Below, piece after piece: positions 5,180 through 54,139 of a DNA stretch of 64,000 bases. The stretch comes from an uncultured Erysipelotrichaceae bacterium (GTDB lineage Bacteria > Bacillota_I > Bacilli_A > RFN20 > CAG-826), in NCBI GenBank assembly GCA_902791935.1, contig CADAXQ010000001.1, positions 105,561 to 169,560 of the forward strand. The letters run 5' to 3'. The number at the start of each line of letters is the position of its first letter. The first letter of the stretch is position 1. The position numbers and the translations under genes are program-made. Under the pieces are notes generated by a model. The model was not told where the DNA came from. It did not search any database and saw only the letters and a program-made list of their open reading frames with translations.

Positions 5180-6946
5180 TTAGAGTGTATCGATTTTCTG
5201 TTTTAATGCTTCGGCAGAGGCAGCTGGCAAGATTTGTTTTAGCTCTTCTAACGACGCATTCTTTAACGCATCCAAGGTTGGATAGTTCTTCCGTAATAGC
5301 TCTTTCCGTTTCTCGCCAATGCCAGGAACGCCGTCAAAAATCGAGGCATGCATCGATTTAATCCGTTCGGAACGATGGAAGGAAATCGCAAAACGATGCA
5401 CTTCATCCTGCATTCGCATCAAATAAAAGAACAACGGGGATTGTCGGTCTAACGGATAGGTTTTCTCATCTTTATCGATGATGCCTTCCGTTTCGTGACG
5501 GTCGTTCTTATATAAGCCAAACACAGGGATATTCACGCCGACTGCCGCTAACGCCTCTAACGTGGCATGCACTTGGGGTAATCCCCCATCGGTTAAGATT
5601 AAATCCGGATAAGATAAGTTTTCTTCTTTTAAGCGCCGATAACGCCTGGTGACGACTTCGACCATCGAATGATAATCATCCCCGGCATTTTTGGGATCCA
5701 AATGGAATTTCCGGTACATGCCTTTCACCGGCTCTCCGTTGATATAGCAAACCATGGCCCCGACGGGGTTAGAACCTTGTAAATGAGAGTTATCAAATAA
5801 CTCAATCCGATAAGGTGTATCGATGCCGAGCAACTTTCCAAGCGATTCTAAAATGGCTTCATTGTCATCGGTCAACCTTGCCGATTGGAAGTGATTGTCT
5901 AATCCTTGTCTGGCATTTAAGGCTGCCATATCGATTTGGGACAATAACCGACCTTCTTTCGGGGAAAATACCTTCGCGGAAGGATAGACCGACGTAAATT
6001 CTTCGGCCATGCCTTCGATGTTACAAAGGATTTCAGAAGGTAAATCGTTATTTTGATAATATTCTTCAATGAGTTCCGTAGCTTGGGAAGCACCGCCTTC
6101 AAACGAAGGCACCACCCGAACTTTTTTGCCGAGCAATAAACCATTCCGGAACGTTAAAATGCTTAACGCAAGGTAACCATCGCGTTCCGCATAGGCAAAC
6201 ACATCACGGTTCGTGCGGTCGCTTTGTAATTCTACCGCCTGCTTGGCCGTCACCCGTTTAATCGCATCGATCGTTTCTTTATAGGACTCGGCATCTTCAT
6301 AACGCATCGCTTCGGAGGCTTGTTCCATCTTTTCGGCGTATTCCTTGATGACGGGGGCCGTATTGCCATCTAGGAACGCCTTGATCTTGTTATATAAATC
6401 TTGATAGGTTTCAGGTGAGATTTCGTTGACGCAAGGCGCAAGGCATTGCCCGAGGTGGGCATATAAACATGGTTTCTTCCCTAACGTTTTGCATTTTCTA
6501 GTCGGGTAAATGCGGTTCAATAAATCAATGATGGTAAACGCATCCCTAGAATTCGGGAATGGCCCGAAATAGAAATAATGTTTGTCATCTGCCCGCCTGG
6601 CAATCTTTAAGAAAGCATCGGATTTTCGAATCGCGATATAAGGATAATGCGAGTCGTCCATCAACATGATGTTGTAACGGGGATGTAACGACTGGATCAG
6701 GTTCATTTCAAGAATGAACGCTTCTTGATCGGTATGGACTTGGATAAAGTCAAAATGGTCGACGTGGTTGACCATCGCGAGCACTTTGCCCGTTTGGGGG
6801 CGCAAAAAATACTGCGACACGCGTCGTTTGAGGTTCTTGGCCTTGCCCACATAGATAATCCGGTCATTGACGTCTTTCATTTGATAGACGCCTGGCCGGT
6901 CTGGCAGCAAGGCGATTTGGCGTTTTAACGATTCGGTTAACACCAT
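5180..6946 (-). CDS. uvrC: Excinuclease ABC subunit C
   Basis: 588-aa ORF with an N-terminal GIY-YIG (PGVYQMKD...IIYVGKAKNLKRRVSQYF), a UVR domain and a C-terminal HhH. Confidence 0.95.
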   Translation of the reverse strand: MVLTESLKRQIALLPDRPGVYQMKDVNDRIIYVGKAKNLKRRVSQYFLRPQTGKVLAMVNHVDHFDFIQVHTDQEAFILEMNLIQSLHPRYNIMLMDDSHYPYIAIRKSDAFLKIARRADDKHYFYFGPFPNSRDAFTIIDLLNRIYPTRKCKTLGKKPCLYAHLGQCLAPCVNEISPETYQDLYNKIKAFLDGNTAPVIKEYAEKMEQASEAMRYEDAESYKETIDAIKRVTAKQAVELQSDRTNRDVFAYAERDGYLALSILTFRNGLLLGKKVRVVPSFEGGASQATELIEEYYQNNDLPSEILCNIEGMAEEFTSVYPSAKVFSPKEGRLLSQIDMAALNARQGLDNHFQSARLTDDNEAILESLGKLLGIDTPYRIELFDNSHLQGSNPVGAMVCYINGEPVKGMYRKFHLDPKNAGDDYHSMVEVVTRRYRRLKEENLSYPDLILTDGGLPQVHATLEALAAVGVNIPVFGLYKNDRHETEGIIDKDEKTYPLDRQSPLFFYLMRMQDEVHRFAISFHRSERIKSMHASIFDGVPGIGEKRKELLRKNYPTLDALKNASLEELKQILPAASAEALKQKIDTL

Positions 6947-6948
6947 AA

Positions 6949-9267
6949 CTACTTCAAATAAACGATGGTGGCGCCTCCGCCGCCTTCGTTCCCATTCGCC
7001 CCCTCGTAATGATCGACGAATTCTTTGTGGGCATCGAGATAATCACGGACGACTTTTCGTAATACCCCACTGCCCCAACCATGGATGATCCGAACGCGTT
7101 TAAAGTGGCGAATCCGGCAATCATCAAGGTATTTTTCTAAGTCTAACTTCGCTTCTTCCGCCCGTTCTCCGATCAAATTGAGTTCTAAAGGAACGGACTT
7201 CACGAAAGCCAAGTCATCTAACGATACGGTGGAAGAAACCGTCTTCGTCTTTTGTTTTGGCTCTTCGACCCGGATGGCTTTTTCTACTCTTGTTTTAAAG
7301 ACAATGCCTTCGGGAGACGTCACTTCAATGCGGTTCCCATCTTTCTTCGTGATTCGGCCTGTCGTATATAACGAAGGCAAATTCACATAATCGCCGACCG
7401 ATAAGTCTTCGTGATGGTCTTCTTCCGCAGGTTTGTCGGGTTCTAAGTTTTCTAGTTTCTTCTTGGCTTGGATGACTTCATGTAACTTGGCGTTACCCCC
7501 TTCGACCGAATGAAGGATGTCTTCCATCTGGGATTCATAATCGGCCAACATCCGTTTCTTTTTCGTCTCGACGTCAGATAAGAAATGTTCTTCGCGTAGC
7601 GCAAGGGCGGCTTGTTTGGAATCGAGACTCGCTTGTTGCTTGGCCAAGGCGATTTTTTCTTTTTCTAAGCTTGCTTTCAAATCTTCCGTTTCTTTCGTGA
7701 CGGCGGAAAGTTTCGCGATTGTTTCGGCCACAGATTGATCCTCGCCTTGTTCTAAAATGGATTTGGCATCTTGTAACACATCCTCGGGCACCCCGAAACG
7801 TTTCGCGACGACTAAGCCATACGATTCGCCAGGCAATCCCATTTTGAGACGATAAGTGGGCAACAAGTTCTTTTCATCAAACATCATCGAAGCGTTCGTG
7901 ACTTCGGGGTGAGACATCGCGTAGGCTTTTAAGCCCTCAAAGTGAGAAGAAATCATCGATAAGGCATGTTTCCGGAGTAAGGCGCGGACAACGGCTAACG
8001 CAATCGCTTCCCCTTCTTTCGGAGACGTTCCTGTCCCGACTTCATCGAGTAACACCAAGTCTTTGCCTTTCACGACCTCTAAAATCTCCGCCACGTTCTT
8101 CATATGTCCAGAGAATGTCGAAAGATTATCGGAGATAGACTGGGAATCCCCGATATCCACGAAGATATGGGGGAAATACGATAAAGAAGAACCCTGCTCT
8201 GCGGGGATTGGTAATCCTGCTTGGTTCATCAAAACCAGTAAACCCAATGTTTTTAGCGCGACGGTTTTACCCCCGGCATTCGGGCCAGAAATCACCACCA
8301 ACGAAGTTTTTTCATCTAAATGAAAATCGTTCGCGACGACTTTTTTTGGATCAAGCAACGGATGTCTTGCCCCATATAAGTCAATTAACGGTTTTTCGGA
8401 AGGAACGGCCAAATGGCCATGAATGAGTTCCGCATAACGGGCTTTTGCCATCCATAAGTCGAGCTGGGCAATTTTGCCATTCGTTTCGAGCAAAGCATCG
8501 CCACTGCCCGCCACTTCTTGGGATAACACCAGTAACAACCGATGAATTTCTTCGCGTTCATCGTTGGCCAACTCTGCTAACTTGTTATTCATCTCCACGA
8601 GTAATTCCGGTTCGATGAACGTTGTTTCGCCGGTGTTCGAAATATCTTGCACGATGCCTTTGACCTTGTTCTTGTAGGCATTTTTGACGGGCAAAACATA
8701 ATGACCGTTCTTTAAGGTCATATTCGTATCGGAAAGATAGAGCTTGTTGCTTTCTAAGACGAACCCTAGCTTTTTCTTCATGGTGGATTCTAACCGGCGG
8801 ATGGCAATCCGAATGGATTTCAGCTTCGGCGAGGCATCGTCATAAATCGATAAATCGGGGGCGATGATATGATGGATATCTTTCTCTAAGAATGCCAAAC
8901 GCGGGAGCGTTGAGACATAGTCTAGCAATTCGTCTTCTTCCGTGACGTTAGAAAAGAAGGCACGAATCCCTTCGGCATTCGTGACATCCAAAGCGATGCG
9001 TTCAAAATCTTCGGGAGACAAGACCCCACCTTTTTTCGCGGCGGAAACAAGCGGTGTTAAATCGGAGGATACGTCGATTGGAATCGCCCCATGACGGGCC
9101 ACTAAATCGATGGTCTCTTCGACGTAATTCCGTTCGCGGGCTAAACTTTTGGGATCGGGGAACATCATGAGTTCCTCGGCCATCCTTGCCCCTCGTTCTG
9201 TCTTGGTTTTGCTTTTTAACGTTTCCCGAATGCGGGCAAATTCAAATTTCTCGTAGGCATCTTGCAT
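6949..9267 (-). CDS. mutS2: Endonuclease MutS2 (MutS domain V plus C-terminal Smr)
   Basis: Walker A GPNAGGKT and a C-terminal Smr domain (LNLIGERAEEA...IIHGWGSGVLR). I trimmed the start to MQDAYEKFEF at 9267. The track ORF extends 52 codons further and would overlap the rnhC promoter and start. Confidence 0.93.
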   Translation of the reverse strand: MQDAYEKFEFARIRETLKSKTKTERGARMAEELMMFPDPKSLARERNYVEETIDLVARHGAIPIDVSSDLTPLVSAAKKGGVLSPEDFERIALDVTNAEGIRAFFSNVTEEDELLDYVSTLPRLAFLEKDIHHIIAPDLSIYDDASPKLKSIRIAIRRLESTMKKKLGFVLESNKLYLSDTNMTLKNGHYVLPVKNAYKNKVKGIVQDISNTGETTFIEPELLVEMNNKLAELANDEREEIHRLLLVLSQEVAGSGDALLETNGKIAQLDLWMAKARYAELIHGHLAVPSEKPLIDLYGARHPLLDPKKVVANDFHLDEKTSLVVISGPNAGGKTVALKTLGLLVLMNQAGLPIPAEQGSSLSYFPHIFVDIGDSQSISDNLSTFSGHMKNVAEILEVVKGKDLVLLDEVGTGTSPKEGEAIALAVVRALLRKHALSMISSHFEGLKAYAMSHPEVTNASMMFDEKNLLPTYRLKMGLPGESYGLVVAKRFGVPEDVLQDAKSILEQGEDQSVAETIAKLSAVTKETEDLKASLEKEKIALAKQQASLDSKQAALALREEHFLSDVETKKKRMLADYESQMEDILHSVEGGNAKLHEVIQAKKKLENLEPDKPAEEDHHEDLSVGDYVNLPSLYTTGRITKKDGNRIEVTSPEGIVFKTRVEKAIRVEEPKQKTKTVSSTVSLDDLAFVKSVPLELNLIGERAEEAKLDLEKYLDDCRIRHFKRVRIIHGWGSGVLRKVVRDYLDAHKEFVDHYEGANGNEGGGGATIVYLK

Positions 9268-37246: not shown

Positions 37247-38449
37247 ATGGCAAAATGCATGGCGGTCAATGCCGGTTCGTCTTCCATTAAGTACAAGCTT
37301 TACGAAATGCCCGAAGAAAAGGTCATTTGTTCGGGTCTTGTAGAACGGATCGGGCACGAAGACGCCCACTTCAACATCAAGTTCGACGGACAACGTCACG
37401 ATGATTATTTACCGATCGAAAATCATGCGGTCGGTGTCAAACTCATTCTCGATGCGTTAAAGAAATTCCACATTGTCGAAGACTTTGACGAAATCAAAGC
37501 CGTAGGCCACCGTGTGGTCCAAGGGGGCAAATACTTCGCAAAATCCGCGTATTTCAACGAAGACACCGAAGCAAAGATCAAGTCGTTAATCCCGCTTGAC
37601 CCCTTACACGCCCCAGCTCACTTAGTCGGTTTCCACGCCTTCCATGACGCGTTACCAAACGCCGTCACGATTGCCGTATTCGATACGGCTTATCACCAAA
37701 CGATGCAAGAAGAGGATTATCTGTTCCCGATTCCGTATGAAATGACGGAAAAATATGACTGCCGTCGTTATGGTGCGCATGGCACTTCGCACCACTACTT
37801 GGCCGATAAGACCATTCACGATTATGCGAATGGCGATGCCTCGAAACGCATCATCACCTGCCATTTAGGATCCGGCGCTTCCCTTTGCGCCATCAAAGAT
37901 GGCAAATGCGTTGCCACTTCCATGGGCCTTACCCCATTAGGTGGCGTCATGATGGGCACCCGTTCGGGTGACTTAGACCCATCGGTTGTTTATTACCTTT
38001 GCCAATGCACGGGCAAAAACGTCGAAGAAATGTACGATATTTTGAATAAGAAGTCTGGTTTCTTAGGCGTTTCTGGCATTTCCAACGATACGCGTGACGT
38101 CTTGGCTGCCGCCAAAAAAGGCGACAGACGCGCCATAACGGCCATTCATTTATGGGCGAGACGCGTCGCCGACTATATCGGTTCATATGTCATTCGTCTT
38201 GGTGGCGTCGATATCATCGTGTTCTCGGCTGGCGTCGGCGAAAATGCGCCGGATTATCGGAAGTTCGTCTTGGAAGATATCCAAGAAGCACTCGGTTTAT
38301 CGATTGACTGGGATATGAATGAGAAATTGTCGGGCGTTCAAGGCGTGATTTCGAAGCCGGATAGCAAAGTCCAAGTCGTTGTGATCCCAACCGACGAAGA
38401 AGTCATGATCGCCCGCGATTGCTATCGTGCCTTAAAAGGAGAACTTTGA
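37247..38449 (+). CDS. ackA: Acetate kinase
   Basis: 400 aa with AVNAGSSSIKYKLY, HRVVQGG and VFSAGVGENA motifs. Confidence 0.97.
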   Translation: MAKCMAVNAGSSSIKYKLYEMPEEKVICSGLVERIGHEDAHFNIKFDGQRHDDYLPIENHAVGVKLILDALKKFHIVEDFDEIKAVGHRVVQGGKYFAKSAYFNEDTEAKIKSLIPLDPLHAPAHLVGFHAFHDALPNAVTIAVFDTAYHQTMQEEDYLFPIPYEMTEKYDCRRYGAHGTSHHYLADKTIHDYANGDASKRIITCHLGSGASLCAIKDGKCVATSMGLTPLGGVMMGTRSGDLDPSVVYYLCQCTGKNVEEMYDILNKKSGFLGVSGISNDTRDVLAAAKKGDRRAITAIHLWARRVADYIGSYVIRLGGVDIIVFSAGVGENAPDYRKFVLEDIQEALGLSIDWDMNEKLSGVQGVISKPDSKVQVVVIPTDEEVMIARDCYRALKGEL

Positions 38450-39450
38450 TGTCGCTTGACCCCATCGTCCGTGCGTACGGAAAAGAATTAAAATCCGCGT
38501 ACCGCTACTTCTACGATTCCGTTAAGAAGTACGACCGCATCGTGGTGTTCCGTCATATTAAGCCCGATTTCGATGCTTTAGGCACCCAAATGGGGCTAGC
38601 CACATTTTTGAAGGATAACTTCCCGAATAAGGAAATCCATGTGGTCGGTGATAATCACGTCACCTTCACCCCACGCTTATTCCCCGAAATGGAACGGTTG
38701 AACGATGATTGGTTCAATACGCCATTTTTAGCCATCGTGGTCGACGTAGGTGACCATGAACGGATTGCCGATCCCCGTTACACCAAAGCGGAACGCATCT
38801 GCAAAATTGACCACCACCCTTGCAAAAAAGAAATCGCACCCCATCCGATTGTCGACTTAGAAAGTGCCGCTGCTGCTGAGTTAATGAGCGATGTCTTGCT
38901 CAAATTCAAAGGCATGACCTTATCAAAAGAAGCCGCCCATTACCTTTATATTGGGATCGTCGGAGATTCAGGCCGCTTCCTCTATTCTTCGACCTCTTCT
39001 CATACCTTTGCGATCGCACAGTCGCTTTTGTCGACCGGCATCGACATCAACTCCATTTATCTTGCGATGTACGAAAAGAAGGTTGATGACTTACGTGTCA
39101 TGGCCTATGTGCTAAATCACTTCTCGGTTACCCCGGGTGGCGTTGCGTACTACTTAATGCCGCAAAGCGTCCAAGACGAATTCAAACTCACTTCGGAGCA
39201 AGGTAAAAACAACGTGAATCTCTTCGCGAATATCGAAGGGATCAATGCTTGGTGCTCCATTACTGAGGATTCTGATCCCAAAGACCCTTGTTGGCGAATT
39301 TCGTTACGGAGCAAGGCCAAAGATATTTCGGGCGTTGCCACTAAGTGGCATGGCGGAGGCCACGCGCAAGCGTCGGGTGCCAAGATCAAAACCTTGGACG
39401 AACTGCCGGCATTCTTGTTTGACATGGACGCCTTGTTCCTTACAAAATAA
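38449..39450 (+). CDS. nrnA: DHH/DHHA1 phosphoesterase (NrnA-like oligoribonuclease / pAp phosphatase)
   Basis: DHH motifs (VVFRHIKPDFDALGT, DVGD, KIDHH) and DHHA1 GGGHAQASG. The start ATG at 38449 overlaps the ackA TGA (TGATG). Confidence 0.85.
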   Translation: MSLDPIVRAYGKELKSAYRYFYDSVKKYDRIVVFRHIKPDFDALGTQMGLATFLKDNFPNKEIHVVGDNHVTFTPRLFPEMERLNDDWFNTPFLAIVVDVGDHERIADPRYTKAERICKIDHHPCKKEIAPHPIVDLESAAAAELMSDVLLKFKGMTLSKEAAHYLYIGIVGDSGRFLYSSTSSHTFAIAQSLLSTGIDINSIYLAMYEKKVDDLRVMAYVLNHFSVTPGGVAYYLMPQSVQDEFKLTSEQGKNNVNLFANIEGINAWCSITEDSDPKDPCWRISLRSKAKDISGVATKWHGGGHAQASGAKIKTLDELPAFLFDMDALFLTK

Positions 39451-40885: not shown

Positions 40886-41095
40886 ATGTAGGCTACCTTT
40901 ATATCGTAACAATTTCATGCCTTGCTGATGGCTGCAACCTTAACGTTTATTTTTTGTTTCTTTTTACCACGCAAAATATGGGGCAAAACGCCAATGTAGC
41001 GATATTTTTCGTTGCTTCTTTTGCTTTTTTCATCCCGTTCGCAATCACCCTCTTCCTTTGGAAAGCGTGTCTTAACGCCTATAATAAAGAATCGT

Positions 41096-42553
41096 ATGAG
41101 CACTTTTGAAATTTCTGATCAATATTTATTCGATTTAGCCGCCATCCAAAGCGATATTGGGGAGTTCACATTATTATTAGAGGCTTCCCAAAACTTGCTA
41201 TTCCAGCTTTATGAAGGAAGACGGAAACTACACGTCAAAGGTTATCAAACCATCGCGATCACCCCTTCTTATGAAGCCCGTTATTTCGTCGATGGGACAA
41301 GATTTCGTTTAGATGCCTTAAATGCCTACCATGAAGGGTTTCACTCCGAAGCCATCCCTAATCCACCCATCGCCGACACCCATGGTTCCTTGCTAGAACT
41401 TGCGAATGCCGACTACGCCTACCACTACCACGACGCCTTAACGAAATTCTTCGATGATACGCCGACGATTCCCGCTTTCTTAAAACGACTCTTTGACCAT
41501 ATGCCGTCCGCGTTACGGGCCAAATTCACGTTACAAAACGAAATGAAGCCAAAACGTTACGAAGAAGCATTGCAAAGTGAGAAACGGAAGCTTGAAAAAG
41601 AAGAGAAGATCAAGGCATCTGAGCAACCGACGGCAAAACCGCTAGAGAAGGTCACCCCTGCAAAACCCGTTATCAAACGAGTGCCGAAACCTATCACTAA
41701 ACCTGTTGTCAAGAAGGTAGCGCCGATTTCTTATGACGCCCAAGAAGAGCAAGGGTTAGAGACGTTACGGCAAGAAAAAGCCCGTAGTGAAGAATTAGCC
41801 CGCCGTATGAAAGCCCGGATTGGGGTGCACTATGGCTGGGAAGAATGCCAAATCCAAGGAGAGAATGCCGACGAGATGTTAACGGCACTTGACCGTAAGA
41901 TTCGGAAGAAAGGGCTAAAAGACGAAGATCATTCTTGGATTGTGGTTGCCACCTATGAAGTAAGCGATGAGGACTTTGCCACCCTTTATGCGCATTATCC
42001 ACATCACACGTTCCGTAGCGATGATATCGCGCATAAACCAAATCCTCTTTATGTCGAAACGGCCATGGTTGTTTCGCCTTTACTAAGGCGAGCCTCTGCC
42101 CCCGAAACAAAACGGGTGCAAAGCAAGACGGCCGTCTTCCAAAGCCATGCCCCAACGCCATTAGAACATCTTGTTGACACGGAAGATTGGGATGAAGACG
42201 AGCCCGAAGAATCCGATGAATGGGGCGAAAGAACCGGCGATAGCACCTTTCACCCCTTTGTTCAAAAACATAAGCAGGCATCGGTAAATCTTGCCGCCAT
42301 GGAATCCACTTCTCTCCGGATTAATAACGATGCTTTGTTGCCAGAAGAAGAAACCGGCGATGAAACAAGTACGATGCCAAGCGATCCTTTGGCTCCCGAA
42401 GTACAAGAAGAACCGATTCCGAAACGCTGGAAATGTCCATTCTGCCCGTCAAGAAATCCCTGGCATACGGAAACCCCGGCCAAAATCATTACAAAAGACG
42501 ATGGAGAACGAGTCTATCTCTGCGCCAAACATAAAAACGCGTATCGAGGCTGA
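41096..42553 (+). CDS. Hypothetical protein, largely low-complexity, with a C-terminal zinc ribbon
   Basis: The long ORF has an ATG at 41096, 10 nt after TATAAT (41080-41085); TTGGAA lies 16 nt upstream of that. The middle is K/P/E-rich and the C-terminus is acidic. It ends WKCPFCPSRNPWH...YLCAKHKNAY. The track start at 41012 is a TTG with no support. Confidence 0.6.
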   Translation: MSTFEISDQYLFDLAAIQSDIGEFTLLLEASQNLLFQLYEGRRKLHVKGYQTIAITPSYEARYFVDGTRFRLDALNAYHEGFHSEAIPNPPIADTHGSLLELANADYAYHYHDALTKFFDDTPTIPAFLKRLFDHMPSALRAKFTLQNEMKPKRYEEALQSEKRKLEKEEKIKASEQPTAKPLEKVTPAKPVIKRVPKPITKPVVKKVAPISYDAQEEQGLETLRQEKARSEELARRMKARIGVHYGWEECQIQGENADEMLTALDRKIRKKGLKDEDHSWIVVATYEVSDEDFATLYAHYPHHTFRSDDIAHKPNPLYVETAMVVSPLLRRASAPETKRVQSKTAVFQSHAPTPLEHLVDTEDWDEDEPEESDEWGERTGDSTFHPFVQKHKQASVNLAAMESTSLRINNDALLPEEETGDETSTMPSDPLAPEVQEEPIPKRWKCPFCPSRNPWHTETPAKIITKDDGERVYLCAKHKNAYRG

Positions 42554-42569
42554 TACGCGTTTCTTTTTG
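42535..42569. terminator. Bidirectional terminator between convergent genes
   Basis: An 11-bp perfect inverted repeat AAACGCGTATC / GATACGCGTTT is flanked by an A-run and CTTTTT. Confidence 0.75.
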
Positions 42570-42575
42570 ATTAGA

Positions 42576-43250
42576 TTAATTGACTTTATAACGAATTAAG
42601 TCGGCGGGCGTAATGACGCCGAGTAATGCTTCGTCGCGTTTGCCATTTTCCGTGACAAGAATTAAGCCAACACGATGCTTTGATTCCGATAATGTGGCAA
42701 AGATTTCACTGGCTTCATAGGCTGGTTCTTTTCTAGATAAGAACACATAACCGTGCGAATGTTCTTTGTCTAAAGCAAAATGGGATGACAAGAAATCATC
42801 GACGAGGAGTTCTCGTGGGAACTTCGTGCGGATAACGAGCAAATCGAGGATATCATTCGCCGAAATGACGCCGAGCACGGATTTGTCGTTTTCTAAGATG
42901 GGAAGATAAGTGAGGTCATTCTCGCTCATGAGTTCCAAGGCATCATGAAACGGCATGGAAGGTCGACCCGCGATGATTTTCTTGGAAGTGATGTCATAAA
43001 CAGAACGACCCATCTCTTTTTGAATGCGGATGATATCTTCCACGACCGCGCTAGAGACGGCCACGCAGTCTTTGGCCTTATAGGCTTCGTGGGACAAGAA
43101 GTTACGAATTTGCCGGAATCCTTCGAATTCGCGGGAGTATTTACGTTGATAGAACGCATACTCTTCAGGAGCCATATCGCGAATCGATTCCAATTCGCGG
43201 TAATAGCGAAGAAACGTTTCAGTTAACGCTTCGTTGTATTCAATCTTCAT
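42576..43250 (-). CDS. CBS-pair protein with an N-terminal helical domain carrying an Rx4H (HEPN-like) motif
   Basis: 224 aa. Residues ~90-224 form two CBS motifs (VLGVISANDILDLL, LLGVITPADLIRY). Residues 1-85 are helical, with FRQIRNFLSHEAY (R49-H54, encoded at 43089-43106). Confidence 0.75.
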   Translation of the reverse strand: MKIEYNEALTETFLRYYRELESIRDMAPEEYAFYQRKYSREFEGFRQIRNFLSHEAYKAKDCVAVSSAVVEDIIRIQKEMGRSVYDITSKKIIAGRPSMPFHDALELMSENDLTYLPILENDKSVLGVISANDILDLLVIRTKFPRELLVDDFLSSHFALDKEHSHGYVFLSRKEPAYEASEIFATLSESKHRVGLILVTENGKRDEALLGVITPADLIRYKVN

Positions 43251-43305
43251 ATTCTTAGCATAGCGCTTCTTGCATTAAAGCGCATTTTCTTTTAGGCTTA
43301 AAGCC

Positions 43306-43803
43306 ATGAAATTACCGACTTATAACAAAGAAGAAAAGAAAGCAATCGGCATTTATTGCGGTGAGCTTTTGGTCTTCGCGATTGTCTTTGGGGTCTTAGG
43401 CATTCTGTTCTTGCTTTCCGTCATTGGCGTAAGCGATTGGAAACGTTATGCGTTTACCTATGTCACCTTGATTGGGGGATTATGGCCGATTGCCGACTTC
43501 TTCTGGACGTTATTCTCTAAGAAGCATCGGGCCGCGAACTCCTTGGTGGATAAAGTCTTGGCCTTACCGGCACCATTCGTCACCATCCCATTTGATATCT
43601 GGATGTTAATCCAAGGCATTCCGAACGTCGATGTCAATGTCTATCGTTACTTGATTGGTTCCATCTTCTGCTACTTCGCATTGGTGTACCTCTTTGAATG
43701 CGTCTACCACTACTTCGTTCCGATTCCGGGATTATTAGAAGCCGACGAAAAAGAAGAAAAGCCAGCAGAACCGACGGACAACACGCCGAAAGATCAACAA
43801 TAA
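43306..43803 (+). CDS. Hypothetical 4-TM membrane protein
   Basis: 165 aa with four hydrophobic segments and an acidic C-terminal tail. It is divergent from the CBS protein. Confidence 0.6.
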   Translation: MKLPTYNKEEKKAIGIYCGELLVFAIVFGVLGILFLLSVIGVSDWKRYAFTYVTLIGGLWPIADFFWTLFSKKHRAANSLVDKVLALPAPFVTIPFDIWMLIQGIPNVDVNVYRYLIGSIFCYFALVYLFECVYHYFVPIPGLLEADEKEEKPAEPTDNTPKDQQ

Positions 43804-43810
43804 AACAGAA

Positions 43811-43838
43811 AACGCGCCCCAAATGAGACGCGTTTTTT
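43811..43838 (+). terminator. Rho-independent terminator
   Basis: AACGCG-loop-CGCGTT followed by TTTTTT. Confidence 0.65.
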
Positions 43839-43940
43839 GATATTACCCCCAGCGTTTCTTTTTTTCTAGACAGTCAGAGGTTTTGCCGATTGCTTTTTTT
43901 CACAAACCAACATCCACCGTTTTCAAAAAATAATGCTGAC

Positions 43941-44909
43941 TCATTTTGTGAGATTGCGATTGCGGATGTTGTTACATTTCCAAATCGCCATCGGATGATT
44001 ACCGATGCGAGAAAGTATATTTTCATCTTGGAAAAGTAATTCTGGATGGTACTCACCTTGACGAAATGATGTCCAGAAAGAAAGTTCCCGTACGTCAGGC
44101 GTCAAAATTTTTTGCAGGTAGGACGTGGCTTGCTCTTGTGCTTTCTCGGCGTCAAACCAAGTACCACTTTTCAACACGGGAACTAAATCGGTTTTGACTT
44201 GATATTGGGTAACGGAAGAAATCCGTTCGAAATCAAAACGCTCTGGAATGGTGTCAGAACCGATTGCGCTATAAAACATGACGCACTTTTTTAGCATCGG
44301 TTCTTGAGATTTATCAAATAACTCGTTCTTTATCATGGTCTGTATATCATAGAGGTCTCTCGGAGCTGCCCGATTTAAGAGAGCAACGATTTTTGAACCG
44401 TATATTTCTAGTGGATCAACGCACAACACACTGATTTCCTGCTTCAGCCAAGGCAGTTTGATTGCCCTTCGCTTCGGTTTCAAGACGTGACAGCGAAGCA
44501 TGTAATTGATTTCAATTTTAAGGTTATCTTTCACGCCGCCACTATTCTGATAATCATAGACGAAAGAATCCAAAGCATAATAATTTTTGGATTTATCGCT
44601 TATGAGGTATCCTTGGGCATTCATGTATTTATGGATCCGTTCGGTGATTAGTTTTCGCGTCGCCAACATTTCTTCCCGCGAAACGTTATTTGAAAAATCC
44701 AGATCAATATCGACTGACAAACGAGGTAAATCAAAGATTGTCAGGTTGATCGCAGTTCCGCCTTTTAATGCCAGCGAATCAGCAAGCAAAGGATCTTTTT
44801 GTATGAAGCCCAGGATAGAAACTAAACGACATACTTTTTCGAAAGTATCTCGCACAAATCCTAATTCCTTGGCTTGTCTTCCTAAAATGATTCGTTCAAA
44901 TTGCGTCAT
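43941..44909 (-). CDS. abiEii: AbiEii/AbiGii-family nucleotidyltransferase toxin (DUF1814)
   Basis: 322 aa with N-terminal NTase motifs LALKGGTAINL and RLSVDIDLDF. It overlaps the upstream antitoxin gene by 14 nt. Confidence 0.85.
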   Translation of the reverse strand: MTQFERIILGRQAKELGFVRDTFEKVCRLVSILGFIQKDPLLADSLALKGGTAINLTIFDLPRLSVDIDLDFSNNVSREEMLATRKLITERIHKYMNAQGYLISDKSKNYYALDSFVYDYQNSGGVKDNLKIEINYMLRCHVLKPKRRAIKLPWLKQEISVLCVDPLEIYGSKIVALLNRAAPRDLYDIQTMIKNELFDKSQEPMLKKCVMFYSAIGSDTIPERFDFERISSVTQYQVKTDLVPVLKSGTWFDAEKAQEQATSYLQKILTPDVRELSFWTSFRQGEYHPELLFQDENILSRIGNHPMAIWKCNNIRNRNLTK

Positions 44910-45657
44910 TGTATTCCACTCCTTTGTGAATCAGATTCATCAGGTTTTCCGGCGCATAGAGTCTCCAATCTGGCTGCCAAAATAACCCCTTTCTTTGCTT
45001 TAGCAAATAAGATTTCCCTTTCGGAAGATGCTGTTTGCAAAGTTTGAAAAAATTCTTCGAAAGACCGAGGCTACTGGCAAAATAAGAGAGGATATAACCG
45101 GTTTTCTGATAAAGAAACCCGTTGTCGTATTCGGCAAGGAAACGAGAAAGAGCAGTTTCATCTAAAGTCGGGATTAAAGCAAGGCACCGTAATAGTTCCT
45201 CTAACCCACCGATTTTCTCGAACTGATCCACGGAATCAATGACCGTTCGTTCCAGTGTAGTGACCCGGGTTCCGTTTATGATAGTGACACCATCTTTGAT
45301 TTTCGGAGTCACCCGTCGGTAGGTTACTCCTCCATAGCGAAAATCGCGGAACCGACTTTCGCTAATTACCTGCATCTCATAAAAAACCTGGTTACTGAAG
45401 CCATAGAATTCGAAGGCACTATGATACGAAACAGTAGCATCGGGAAAAATATGGGAAGCAATGACGTACCGATTCGGAATCGGTTGATGGGTCTCCAAGC
45501 TGATCGTCACATAGAGATTGTGCTTGACCCGTTCAATATAGCCTTTCTTTAGATATTCTTGGCAAACCCATTTGGCGGCTGTTTCATGACCCGTTAATTT
45601 GACCAAATCCTTGATTGCGAAACAGCCTAAGTCCACTAATTCTTGATAGTATTTCAT
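44896..45657 (-). CDS. abiEi: AbiEi-family type IV antitoxin / transcriptional regulator
   Basis: N-terminal wHTH (FAIKDLVKLTGHETAAKWVCQEYLKKGYIERVKHNLYV) and C-terminal AbiEi domain. Start taken at ATG 45657; the track uses a TTG at 45699. Confidence 0.78.
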   Translation of the reverse strand: MKYYQELVDLGCFAIKDLVKLTGHETAAKWVCQEYLKKGYIERVKHNLYVTISLETHQPIPNRYVIASHIFPDATVSYHSAFEFYGFSNQVFYEMQVISESRFRDFRYGGVTYRRVTPKIKDGVTIINGTRVTTLERTVIDSVDQFEKIGGLEELLRCLALIPTLDETALSRFLAEYDNGFLYQKTGYILSYFASSLGLSKNFFKLCKQHLPKGKSYLLKQRKGLFWQPDWRLYAPENLMNLIHKGVEYNDAI

Positions 45658-45858
45658 ATGTTCTGTATATAGATTTGCACAAAACGATAGTTTTTTCAAT
45701 CCTATTGTGTAATTTTAACTACGAATCAGCGTTTTGTGAAAATACGCGATGAGCTCATTCGATCCCGCCATTTTTTTATCCGTGGCGTTCATCAGACCGC
45801 AAATGACGCAAAGTGAGAGAATAAATATTCTTAAAGCAGTAAGAACGTCATCTCGGCC

Positions 45859-52747: not shown

Positions 52748-54139
52748 ATGCCTGAACTCCCAGAAGTCGAAACCATTGCCCGCATTCTCAATACTTTTTT
52801 GCCGGGGAAAACCATCCAAGCAGTACGGATTATCCGGGCCAAAAACATTGAAAATGATCCCGCCTTTTTTACGCATACGTTAAAAGGTAAGACTTTCTTG
52901 CATGTTTCTCGTCGTGGCAAGTATCTTTTATTTCATTTAACCGATGGTTGGGTCGTCTTGTCGCACTTAAGAATGGAAGGCAAGTACTTCGAAGGCAAGG
53001 CAGGACAAGCCCCGAATCCTTACGACATCGTGTTTTATGACTTTACGGATGGAAGTTCATTACGTTATGAAGATGTCCGAAAATTCGGGCGGTTACGATT
53101 AAATCGCGAAGATGAGGTTGAAAACATTCCTCCTCTTTCGGAATTAGGACCTGAGCCATGGGAGGCAAAACCCGATGTGTTTTTGATGGATTTGCATCGT
53201 CACGCATCTTTGCCAATCAAAAGTGCTTTAATGGATCAACACATCATCGCCGGCATTGGAAACATCTATGCGGATGAAACGTTATTTGCCGCGAAGATAT
53301 CGCCGAAAGAAGCGGCCAAAGATGTCGACGAAAAACAGGCAATTACCTTGCTTCAATCCGCGAATGCCGTCTTAAAAGAAGCCGTTTTAGAAGGGGGATC
53401 GACCATTCGCTCCTATCACCCAAAACAAGGGATGAGTGGCCAAATGCAGAATCATCTTGAAGTCTATGGCAAAGGCAATACGCCGTGTCCTCGTTGTGGC
53501 GCACCATTACGTTCGATTCGTATCGGGCAAAGAAGTTCGGTTTATTGCCCCGTTTGCCAACACGAAGAAGGAAAACCGTTTATTGTCGGGATTTCTGGCC
53601 CAATCGCCTCGGGAAAATCCACGGTCTCCGCTTATTTAGCCAAGAAGGGTTACCGCATTTTAGATGCTGATGAGCTTTCCCATGAAGCGTATACGGTTCC
53701 TTCGATTCGAAAGAAAATCGCAAGATCGTTTGGAGAAGATGTGTTAACGCCGACCGGCATTGACCGCGCAAAGATGTTAAACATTGTTTCGGAAGACTCG
53801 AAGAAACGGAAGCGCTTAGAACGCATCATTCACCCCTATGTTTATCAAAAGACCCAAGAGGTCATCGACGCCGGCAAAGATTTAATAATCGCGATTGATA
53901 TGCCGCTTCTTTTGACTTCGCCTTTCTTGAATCAATGCGATTTGGTAATTGGGATTGCTGCTCCTGAAGAAATCCGTTATCAAAGATTAATTGCCCGTGG
54001 CGTCGATCCGAAACGGGCTTTAGAGCTCAACCGCTCCTTCCCGATGGCAAAATGTAAAAAAGCCGCCGGCATCTTGCTCGATGGCAGCGGTTCTTTGTCC
54101 GACTTAGAACAACAATTAGACGCTTATCCTTTTCTATGA
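52748..54139 (+). CDS. mutM-coaE: Fused formamidopyrimidine-DNA glycosylase (Fpg/MutM) and dephospho-CoA kinase (CoaE)
   Basis: Residues 1-~275 are Fpg: MPELPEVE, H2TH, and zinc finger CPRCGAPL...YCPVCQ. After a 7-aa linker (HEEGKPF) comes the CoaE P-loop IVGISGPIASGKST, followed by a ~190-aa CoaE-like body. Confidence 0.88.
   Translation: MPELPEVETIARILNTFLPGKTIQAVRIIRAKNIENDPAFFTHTLKGKTFLHVSRRGKYLLFHLTDGWVVLSHLRMEGKYFEGKAGQAPNPYDIVFYDFTDGSSLRYEDVRKFGRLRLNREDEVENIPPLSELGPEPWEAKPDVFLMDLHRHASLPIKSALMDQHIIAGIGNIYADETLFAAKISPKEAAKDVDEKQAITLLQSANAVLKEAVLEGGSTIRSYHPKQGMSGQMQNHLEVYGKGNTPCPRCGAPLRSIRIGQRSSVYCPVCQHEEGKPFIVGISGPIASGKSTVSAYLAKKGYRILDADELSHEAYTVPSIRKKIARSFGEDVLTPTGIDRAKMLNIVSEDSKKRKRLERIIHPYVYQKTQEVIDAGKDLIIAIDMPLLLTSPFLNQCDLVIGIAAPEEIRYQRLIARGVDPKRALELNRSFPMAKCKKAAGILLDGSGSLSDLEQQLDAYPFL

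Follow-up and report, generated by a model that had tools for sequence, protein, structure and literature searches.

Does a small protein that joins a helical domain with an RNase-like motif to a nucleotide-sensing module cleave RNA in response to a ligand, and does it do so in defence? The question is raised by a gene of 224 codons, hereafter the HEPN-CBS gene, in a stretch of 64,000 nucleotides (the window) from an uncultured Erysipelotrichaceae bacterium (GenBank assembly GCA_902791935.1, contig CADAXQ010000001.1, positions 105,561 to 169,560). The original prediction described a helical N-terminus with the R-N-x3-H signature of HEPN RNases, followed by a canonical tandem CBS (Bateman) module, and proposed a nucleotide-gated RNase or defence effector associated with the AbiEi/AbiEii pair about 700 bp away. 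The reading frame and the position of the motif are as it described them (Table 1): counting codons from 43250, the R49 codon lies at 43106-43104 and the H54 codon at 43091-43089, and the peptide FEGFRQIRNFLSHEAY is correct. From what the sequence and its predicted fold offer, a ligand-gated RNase is the best mechanistic reading that remains, and we give it an even chance of being right. The association with AbiE and with a defence island, by contrast, was not supported.

We aligned the window protein with its homologues (26 sequences, 24-85% identity to it) and examined the conservation of each column. The dependence of the original prediction on R49 and H54 was borne out: the columns F13, Y17, R49, N50 and H54, and no others, are covered by all 26 sequences without a single substitution. 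P117 and D217 do not vary either, but among only 24 and 22 covering sequences, respectively. R46, L52, L14 and S66 are conserved in 25/26 homologues, and position 21 is E in 24/26 and D in 2/26. Mean column entropy is 1.98 bits for the N-terminal domain versus 2.16 bits for the CBS pair; together with the invariant columns, these values indicate that the N-terminal domain, and within it the R-N-x3-H block, is better conserved than the CBS pair. An Rx4H pair alone would be expected by chance in about one in five proteins of such size, by our own estimate. Judged from the alignment, the R49/N50/H54 motif exceeds chance, being invariant across the whole set of homologues.

The family is rare. We found six matches among 5.8 billion clustered proteins, and an exhaustive HMMER search with the N-terminal domain alone found 23 in 1.84 billion representatives. 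The members found by HMMER are 214-229 residues long and share the same two-domain layout, except for a few fragments of 84-194 residues, and a further word-indexed search with an N-domain profile added fragments only. A metagenome scan yielded three loci: the peptide pattern [FY]Rx[LI]RN[YF]LSH matched 571 stretches, only three of which proved to be relatives of the HEPN-CBS protein. A genome scan yielded two loci, one of them matching in the CBS region only, and a scan of viral contigs returned no relatives of the protein. One member comes from a named genome, that of Salirhabdus euzebyi (Bacillaceae), where the motif reads RNALVH.

Is the N-terminal domain a HEPN domain? HEPN domains are four-helix up-down bundles of ~100-120 residues whose families are poorly conserved apart from a strongly conserved Rx4-6H motif; this motif sits where helix 3 ends, running into the loop before helix 4, a polar N, D or H directly follows the arginine, and an acidic residue lies upstream, typically as Ex3[KR] (PMC3710099). 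The window protein carries the invariant R49-x4-H54 pair, the invariant N50 directly after the arginine, and E or D at position 21, in the first predicted helix. The helical character originally predicted for the N-terminus is reproduced in an AlphaFold2 model of the full-length protein built on the 26-sequence alignment (predicted local distance difference test, pLDDT, 91.5; predicted template-modelling score, pTM, 0.84), which places helices at residues 7-26, 28-37, 39-54 and 67-81 and the CBS pair after them. The domain modelled alone forms the same helices (pLDDT 82.7). In the predicted structure, R49-H54 closes helix 3, followed by a 12-residue loop before helix 4, as in the HEPN topology.

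A comparison of profiles pointed in the same direction. We built a profile of the HEPN domain of DS-11, an anti-phage protein of Escherichia coli, from a 120-sequence alignment, and compared the two families by hhalign. Residues 26-81 aligned with the DS-11 domain, with R49-H54 falling onto the catalytic R330-H335, at a score of 21.7 (P 0.0023, z ~5) versus 10.8 +/- 2.1, with a maximum of 15.9, in 100 column-shuffled controls. Sub-threshold matches to curated models were also obtained. P0004-P0006, the three members that diverge most and whose first hairpin is longer, matched Pfam HepT-like (E 0.0019, 18.4 versus 23.5 bits), HEPN_RiboL-PSP (0.016), HEPN_Apea (0.017) and DUF4145 (0.019), each over the motif-bearing part; NCBIfam HepT_toxin was matched at E 0.016. 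Among the weak PADLOC matches of family members, 7/12 were HEPN-bearing models (Cas13b at 1.5e-4, Cas13a, four CARF_HEPN models with a match at 8e-4, and PD-T4-5), all sub-threshold. The best sub-threshold Pfam match, to DUF6548 (E 2e-4) and again from the divergent members, was set aside, since it added nothing and a literature search found no publication on this family.

Several observations weigh against the HEPN assignment. HEPN domains are usually longer than these 85 residues, and the spacing from E21 to the next basic residue is Ex2[KR], not Ex3[KR]. Residues 1-85 match no Pfam, NCBIfam or PADLOC family; no member of the family reaches the threshold of a curated HEPN-clan profile, and for the window protein none turns up even at E up to 10. 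The hhalign signal to the DS-11 HEPN domain is gone once the motif is deleted, and we therefore claim no homology to that domain beyond the motif region, where the resemblance may have arisen by convergence. A Foldseek search with the isolated 86-residue N-domain model gave best E-values of 2.9 (PDB) and 1.4 (BFVD), template-modelling scores (TM-scores) below 0.5 and no HEPN entries, a null that is weak negative evidence since Foldseek discriminates short helical domains poorly. Run against PDB as a sequence profile, the N-domain alignment returned chance matches only (dextranase, spermidine synthase). However, the validated DS-11 HEPN domain has no Pfam match either, so that a missing curated match is not strong negative evidence. 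We conclude that the N-terminal domain is probably, though not provably, a HEPN domain: the original assignment is upheld by the hallmarks of sequence and topology, and fails to gain a profile match above threshold or a HEPN match in Foldseek.

The same shortfall, no structural or curated profile match that proves the HEPN fold, speaks for another explanation, in which the protein is a non-catalytic nucleotide sensor. Its N-terminal domain would bind a protein or a nucleic acid, with R, N and H making contacts, and the whole would regulate a partner such as a transporter, in the manner of CbpB/DarB. Inactive HEPN domains that serve as binding modules have been described (PMC3710099). Stand-alone CBS proteins that bind partners are well known (CbpB; Lmo0553 binds cyclic di-AMP, c-di-AMP), and the surroundings of the homologues offer candidates, with ABC-transporter genes 2-3 bp after the gene in two lineages and the gene itself 52 bp after the diadenylate cyclase gene cdaA in one. 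Yet the R, the polar N, the H and the acidic residue are all kept, as in HEPN domains that are active RNases; those that only bind have lost this catalytic signature (PMC3710099). Moreover, the neighbours vary by lineage, indicating that there is no constant partner. We consider a purely sensory role unlikely.

The C-terminal part of the protein, as originally described, is a canonical tandem CBS module. From residue 84 on, two stretches match Pfam CBS (PF00571), which scores 59.8 bits (cut-off 24). Foldseek with the full-length model returned CBS-pair structures only (probability 1.00, E 1e-10 to 1e-8, target TM-score up to 0.80), among them the nucleotide-bound Bateman modules of MJ0922, CBSX2 with AMP, AcuB with AMP, ADP or Ap4A, and AMPK gamma. 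A full-length PDB profile search also matched CBS regions only; on the N-terminal side its matches go no further than residue ~71, where the last N-domain helix comes to its C-terminal end, and they leave the motif untouched. The signature G-h-h-[ST]-x-x-D, which contacts the ribose of adenosine ligands in CBS domains, is present in both CBS motifs, as G127-V-I-S-A-N-D133 in CBS1 and G211-V-I-T-P-A-D217 in CBS2. Of the two aspartates, D217 never varies in the family and D133 is not conserved, suggesting that each module has one functional ligand site, and judging by this pattern the CBS2 signature, G211-D217, is likely to be that site.

How might the two parts work together? We propose that the product is a stand-alone, two-domain cytoplasmic protein, in which the R49/N50/H54 triad, aided by E21, would catalyse metal-independent cleavage of RNA, and the CBS pair would bind an adenine nucleotide, mainly at CBS2 (G211-x5-D217). 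The Bateman modules would homodimerise and thereby bring two minimal HEPN domains together, and binding or release of the ligand would alter the geometry of the dimer, so that a composite Rx4H site is assembled or disrupted. RNase activity may in this way be switched by the nucleotide state of the cell, the ligand being AMP, ADP, ATP or else a second messenger, for instance c-di-AMP. One further point weighs against such an RNase: no toxin-neutralising partner is evident, and a constitutively active RNase would be toxic. The model consequently needs autoinhibition, which we assume. Whether the protein is a dimeric HEPN RNase that is gated by an adenine nucleotide and serves in stress or in housekeeping is, in our assessment, evenly balanced. 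The gene, its domain boundaries, the invariance of the motif, the CBS fold and the synteny are shown by the data; RNase activity, dimerisation, ligand, direction of regulation and role are what we infer.

The original prediction knew of no HEPN-CBS fusion described as a defence or stress effector, which proved wrong on two counts. Fusions of HEPN domains of the Swt1-like group with CBS domains, some with an HD domain as well, were predicted in 2013 to couple nucleotide sensing to RNA stability (PMC3710099), and DS-11 is a validated anti-phage system made of a single E. coli protein of 365 residues, its CBS pair followed by a HEPN domain at the C-terminus, in which the mutations Y157A (CBS), R330A and H335A (HEPN) abolish defence (DefensePredictor; bioRxiv 2025, Science author manuscript of April 2026, PMC13092281). 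DS-11 corresponds to WP_000257686.1 and to the NCBIfam family NF053863, 'CBS domain-containing anti-phage protein'. Both it and the window protein combine, in one polypeptide, a CBS pair and a HEPN-type R-N-x3-H domain. Their catalytic helices read VRIIRNDVMH (DS-11) and FRQIRNFLSH (window protein), and each leads through a loop into a last helix that begins with [IV]-S; the proposed logic, an adenine ligand that gates a dimeric HEPN RNase, would be the same. The layout differs. In DS-11, an additional N-terminal region precedes the CBS pair and a HEPN domain of ~120 residues follows it at the C-terminus, whereas the window protein has its 85-residue HEPN-like domain first and its CBS pair last, with no C-terminal extension. 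The NF053863 model, with a cut-off of 260 bits, gives the window protein 23.5 bits, over residues 88-160 (CBS) only, and the best family member 34.5 bits. Given the sub-cut-off score and the opposite domain order, the window protein is not a member of the DS-11 family, though plausibly similar in its working. The ~213-residue 'CBS+HEPN' matches of the DS-11 search were rejected as a mirror-image short family, as they look like N-terminally truncated gene calls of the DS-11 type.

Other known proteins resemble one part or the other. The fusions of the Swt1-like/Abi2 clade with CBS (and HD) domains, such as alr3009 and the Pelobacter propionicus protein gi 118580987, have, in its active form, the Rx4H motif with a polar residue after the arginine that the window protein also carries, but they come from cyanobacteria and proteobacteria and some have the extra HD domain; we liken them by description only, as a functional analogy (PMC3710099). 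HepT (DUF86), of the MNT-HepT type VII toxin-antitoxin systems, is a small HEPN protein with a motif of the R-N-x3-H type and gave the best sub-threshold curated HEPN match, on the motif-bearing C-terminal half of the domain. However, no MNT antitoxin gene adjoins the window gene, and control would come from the fused CBS sensor and not from AMPylation by a partner. CbpB/DarB, AcuB, Lmo0553/CbpA, MJ0922 and CBSX share the Bateman fold and the ribose signature found in the C-terminal 140 residues, but all are without the N-terminal helical RNxxxH domain, and Lmo0553 and AcuB have a C-terminal ACT domain instead. A relation to the c-di-AMP-binding Listeria CbpA/Lmo0553, with its CBS pair plus ACT and no N-terminal helical domain, was accordingly rejected. 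The novelty of the window protein lies in the reversed domain order, the minimal HEPN domain and the core-like inheritance, the HEPN-CBS fusion itself being already known.

We then turned to the AbiE neighbours. Both are genuine: AbiEii occupies 43941-44909 (PADLOC E 8e-120) and AbiEi 44896-45699 (E 3e-101), and the pair begins 691 bp from the HEPN-CBS gene, close to the distance originally given. A divergent gene for a 165-residue membrane protein and a terminator-like hairpin (43809-43836) lie in between. In two metagenome contigs of the same species (L013 and L023, ~96-99% nucleotide identity), a clean deletion of 1033 bp, corresponding to 43838-44870 of the window, removes AbiEii apart from its first seven codons (MTQFERI...) and spares AbiEi, the membrane-protein gene and the HEPN-CBS gene. 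At these loci, the 1033 bp are replaced by ~25 bp (L013:2048-2072 and L023:1271-1295), leaving AbiEi intact but orphaned. In a related genus (L016/L017), an orthologue with 45.9% identity directly adjoins xth, dnaE, polA and a fused fpg-coaE gene, the same block as in the window, with neither AbiE nor the membrane-protein gene; the flanking core proteins are 41-62% identical. The existence of AbiEii-less strains and of orthologue loci without AbiE indicates that AbiE is an independent, polymorphic insertion.

These data bear directly on the idea that the HEPN-CBS protein is a third component of the adjacent AbiE module. What suggests it is proximity only: the 691 bp and the strand shared with abiEi and abiEii. 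Against it stand the intervening membrane-protein gene and hairpin, the two strains that have lost AbiEii and retain the HEPN-CBS gene, and the absence of AbiE next to the L016/L017 orthologue and every other member of the family. The G+C content of AbiE, 41.3% against 46.1% for the window, is also consistent with a separate insertion; the HEPN-CBS gene has 45.0%. We regard this idea as effectively refuted, and a role independent of the adjoining AbiE pair as more likely.

The surroundings of the other homologues are of a housekeeping kind. Homologues adjoin NuoE-like hydrogenase genes (in one case with a heliorhodopsin gene and downstream ABC-transporter genes as well) or rplQ, follow clpB-lgt-Rce1, precede two ABC transporters, lie near an iron repressor gene, stand between an MFS transporter and a CAP-domain protein (Salirhabdus), or lie between an Endonuclease_1 gene, which ends 2-3 bp ahead, and an M20 peptidase gene. 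The last arrangement is that of P0004/P0005, the most divergent members, which begin 2-3 bp past a gene for an aBig_2 plus Endonuclease_1 protein (~598 residues, secreted endonuclease I type; L001-L008, for example L001:6203-7999 followed by 8001-8726); this tight coupling is kept in eight contigs, with the M20 peptidase gene next. In all, we counted ~12 distinct contexts, and a defence module is adjacent in the window only, in what is a small sample of a family rare in databases. The HEPN-CBS gene is core-like, vertically inherited and syntenic in Erysipelotrichaceae relatives. With such housekeeping contexts and synteny, the defence-island reading of the original prediction is unsupported: a 46%-identical orthologue has no AbiE, and the strains without AbiEii keep the gene.

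Could the protein nevertheless be an abortive-infection effector working like DS-11, in which an adenine nucleotide derived from infection binds the CBS pair and frees the HEPN RNase, the nearby AbiE pair marking a defence hotspot? DS-11 sets the precedent of a one-protein CBS and HEPN defence system that needs both domains, and the DefensePredictor report stresses that such systems can sit outside defence islands (PMC13092281). The HEPN-CBS gene of the window does lie close to bona fide AbiEi/AbiEii genes; an MrcB_N/NOV_C gene lies ~4 kb upstream of one distant homologue, and hipA ~7 kb from another; and the CBS part of some members weakly matches the DS11_antiphage model. The gene nevertheless keeps its chromosomal position beside xth-dnaE-polA across divergence at the level of core genes. 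Defence genes are typically patchy, and DS-11 is an accessory defence gene of E. coli, whereas the window family sits in conserved housekeeping contexts in Bacillota (rplQ, clpB-lgt, hydrogenase, cdaA, transporters and peptidases). The retention of the gene in strains without AbiEii, the lack of a PADLOC match for the whole protein, the lack of relatives on viral contigs and, once more, the low score on the family model and the reversed domain order also count against an effector of this kind, which we judge improbable. For the gated RNase that we favour, the monocistronic organisation of the gene (see below), its vertical inheritance and its synteny make stress- or energy-responsive RNA turnover likelier than mobile defence.

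One context deserves separate mention. In L021, from a low-GC relative (27% G+C), the homologue P0021 (7001-7681) shares its direction with a gene for a membrane-anchored CdaA-type diadenylate cyclase (6136-6948) and begins 52 bp downstream of it. Since cdaA is absent from the window and from every other fetched locus, it is this one case that hints at c-di-AMP as the CBS ligand, as with CbpB and Lmo0553. Together with the conserved CBS2 site and the syntenic, vertical inheritance, it hints at a bolder version of the favoured mechanism: a core-genome minimal HEPN RNase of Erysipelotrichia and other Bacillota, whose CBS pair would respond to c-di-AMP or to the adenylate charge and thereby switch RNA decay, and which would be a housekeeping counterpart or evolutionary source of the DS-11 type and a previously unrecognised output of c-di-AMP. 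This version is a long shot.

If the protein is a CBS-gated HEPN RNase, this design, which DS-11 has just established as phage defence, has arisen a second time by independent assembly, here with the HEPN domain in front and trimmed to 85 residues. Unlike mobile defence, this second form would be a stably inherited chromosomal gene. It would offer a compact, tractable model in which to ask by what means a Bateman module turns a HEPN active site on or off and what nucleotide it senses, and would bear on whether defence HEPN-CBS proteins derived from housekeeping regulators of RNA turnover or the reverse. RNA metabolism in gut Erysipelotrichaceae, which is poorly studied, would gain a candidate RNase. 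If the N-terminal domain is no RNase, what remains is a CBS protein, as yet uncharacterised, whose helical domain is conserved.

The features of the locus are collected in Table 1.

Table 1 Features of the HEPN-CBS gene and its borders, in window coordinates.
Feature	Position	Strand	Basis
HEPN-like and CBS-pair gene, complete; ATG to TAA, 224 residues, stop codon 42576-42578	42576..43250	-	Open reading frame list and sequence
N-terminal helical domain, residues 1-85; probable minimal HEPN-like four-helix domain	42996..43250	-	AlphaFold2 models
Rx4H motif codons R49-N50-F51-L52-S53-H54; putative RNase catalytic R49/H54, polar N50	43089..43106	-	Conservation, model, hhalign
E21 codon; upstream acidic residue in helix 1	43188..43190	-	E/D in 26/26 homologues
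Tandem CBS (Bateman) module, residues 86-224	42579..42995	-	Pfam PF00571, Foldseek
CBS2 ribose-binding signature codons G211-V-I-T-P-A-D217 (G-h-h-[ST]-x-x-D)	42600..42620	-	D217 invariant, G211 nearly so
G+C-rich hairpin, 12 pairs, with A-runs and T-runs either side	42535..42562	.	Terminator scan (reported on +)
Divergent intergenic spacer, 55 bp, between the HEPN-CBS gene and the 165-residue membrane-protein gene	43251..43305	.	Gene layout

The HEPN-CBS gene is a real gene, as shown by purifying selection: it differs from that of a strain with 96.6% nucleotide identity by 20 synonymous versus 3 non-synonymous codon differences. The identical protein and 99%-identical variants were found on many metagenome contigs. 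The divergent spacer must house the promoters of both flanking genes, and the HEPN-CBS gene is therefore a monocistronic unit; a promoter scan of this spacer found no match to the sigma-70 consensus, and the position of the promoter is deduced from the layout. At the other end, the G+C-rich hairpin sits between the stop codons of the HEPN-CBS gene and of a convergent open reading frame of 513 codons; on the minus strand, its stem is followed by TTTTTATGTTT, and it is probably a bidirectional intrinsic terminator.

The start of the protein was also examined. The gene call of an 85%-identical orthologue, P0002, begins 19 codons further upstream (MALSLKENAFYCKTRYAKN-MKVEY). On the minus strand of the window, an in-frame TAA within 43251-43310 closes an upstream extension of this type, so that a start at MKIEY agrees with most family members; no obvious Shine-Dalgarno sequence precedes it in the same interval.

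Three further open reading frames of the window may be recorded. The convergent 513-codon frame (41012-42553, plus strand) encodes a protein with a Lys/Pro/Glu-rich middle and a C-terminal CxxC...C-x-x-H end resembling a zinc ribbon; it matched no Pfam or PADLOC family and is kept in related strains, there as a gene call of 485 residues. About 3 kb from the HEPN-CBS gene, a stand-alone DHH/DHHA1 protein of 343 residues is encoded at 38419-39450 (plus strand), overlapping the end of ackA; the acetate kinase of the window clusters, at 90% identity or more, with a protein from a metagenome-assembled genome labelled as an uncultured Erysipelotrichaceae bacterium. Stand-alone DHH/DHHA1 proteins include NrnA nanoRNases and c-di-AMP/pApA phosphodiesterases of the Pde2/DhhP type. 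Downstream of polA, a single frame of ~463 codons (52748-54139, plus strand) is an apparent fusion of Fpg/MutM (formamidopyrimidine-DNA glycosylase) with CoaE (dephospho-CoA kinase). Its orthologue in the related genus (L016:6-1406) encodes a single product with Pfam matches to Fapy_DNA_glyco, H2TH, zf-FPG and CoaE; it aligns with the window frame over its full length, at 41% identity.

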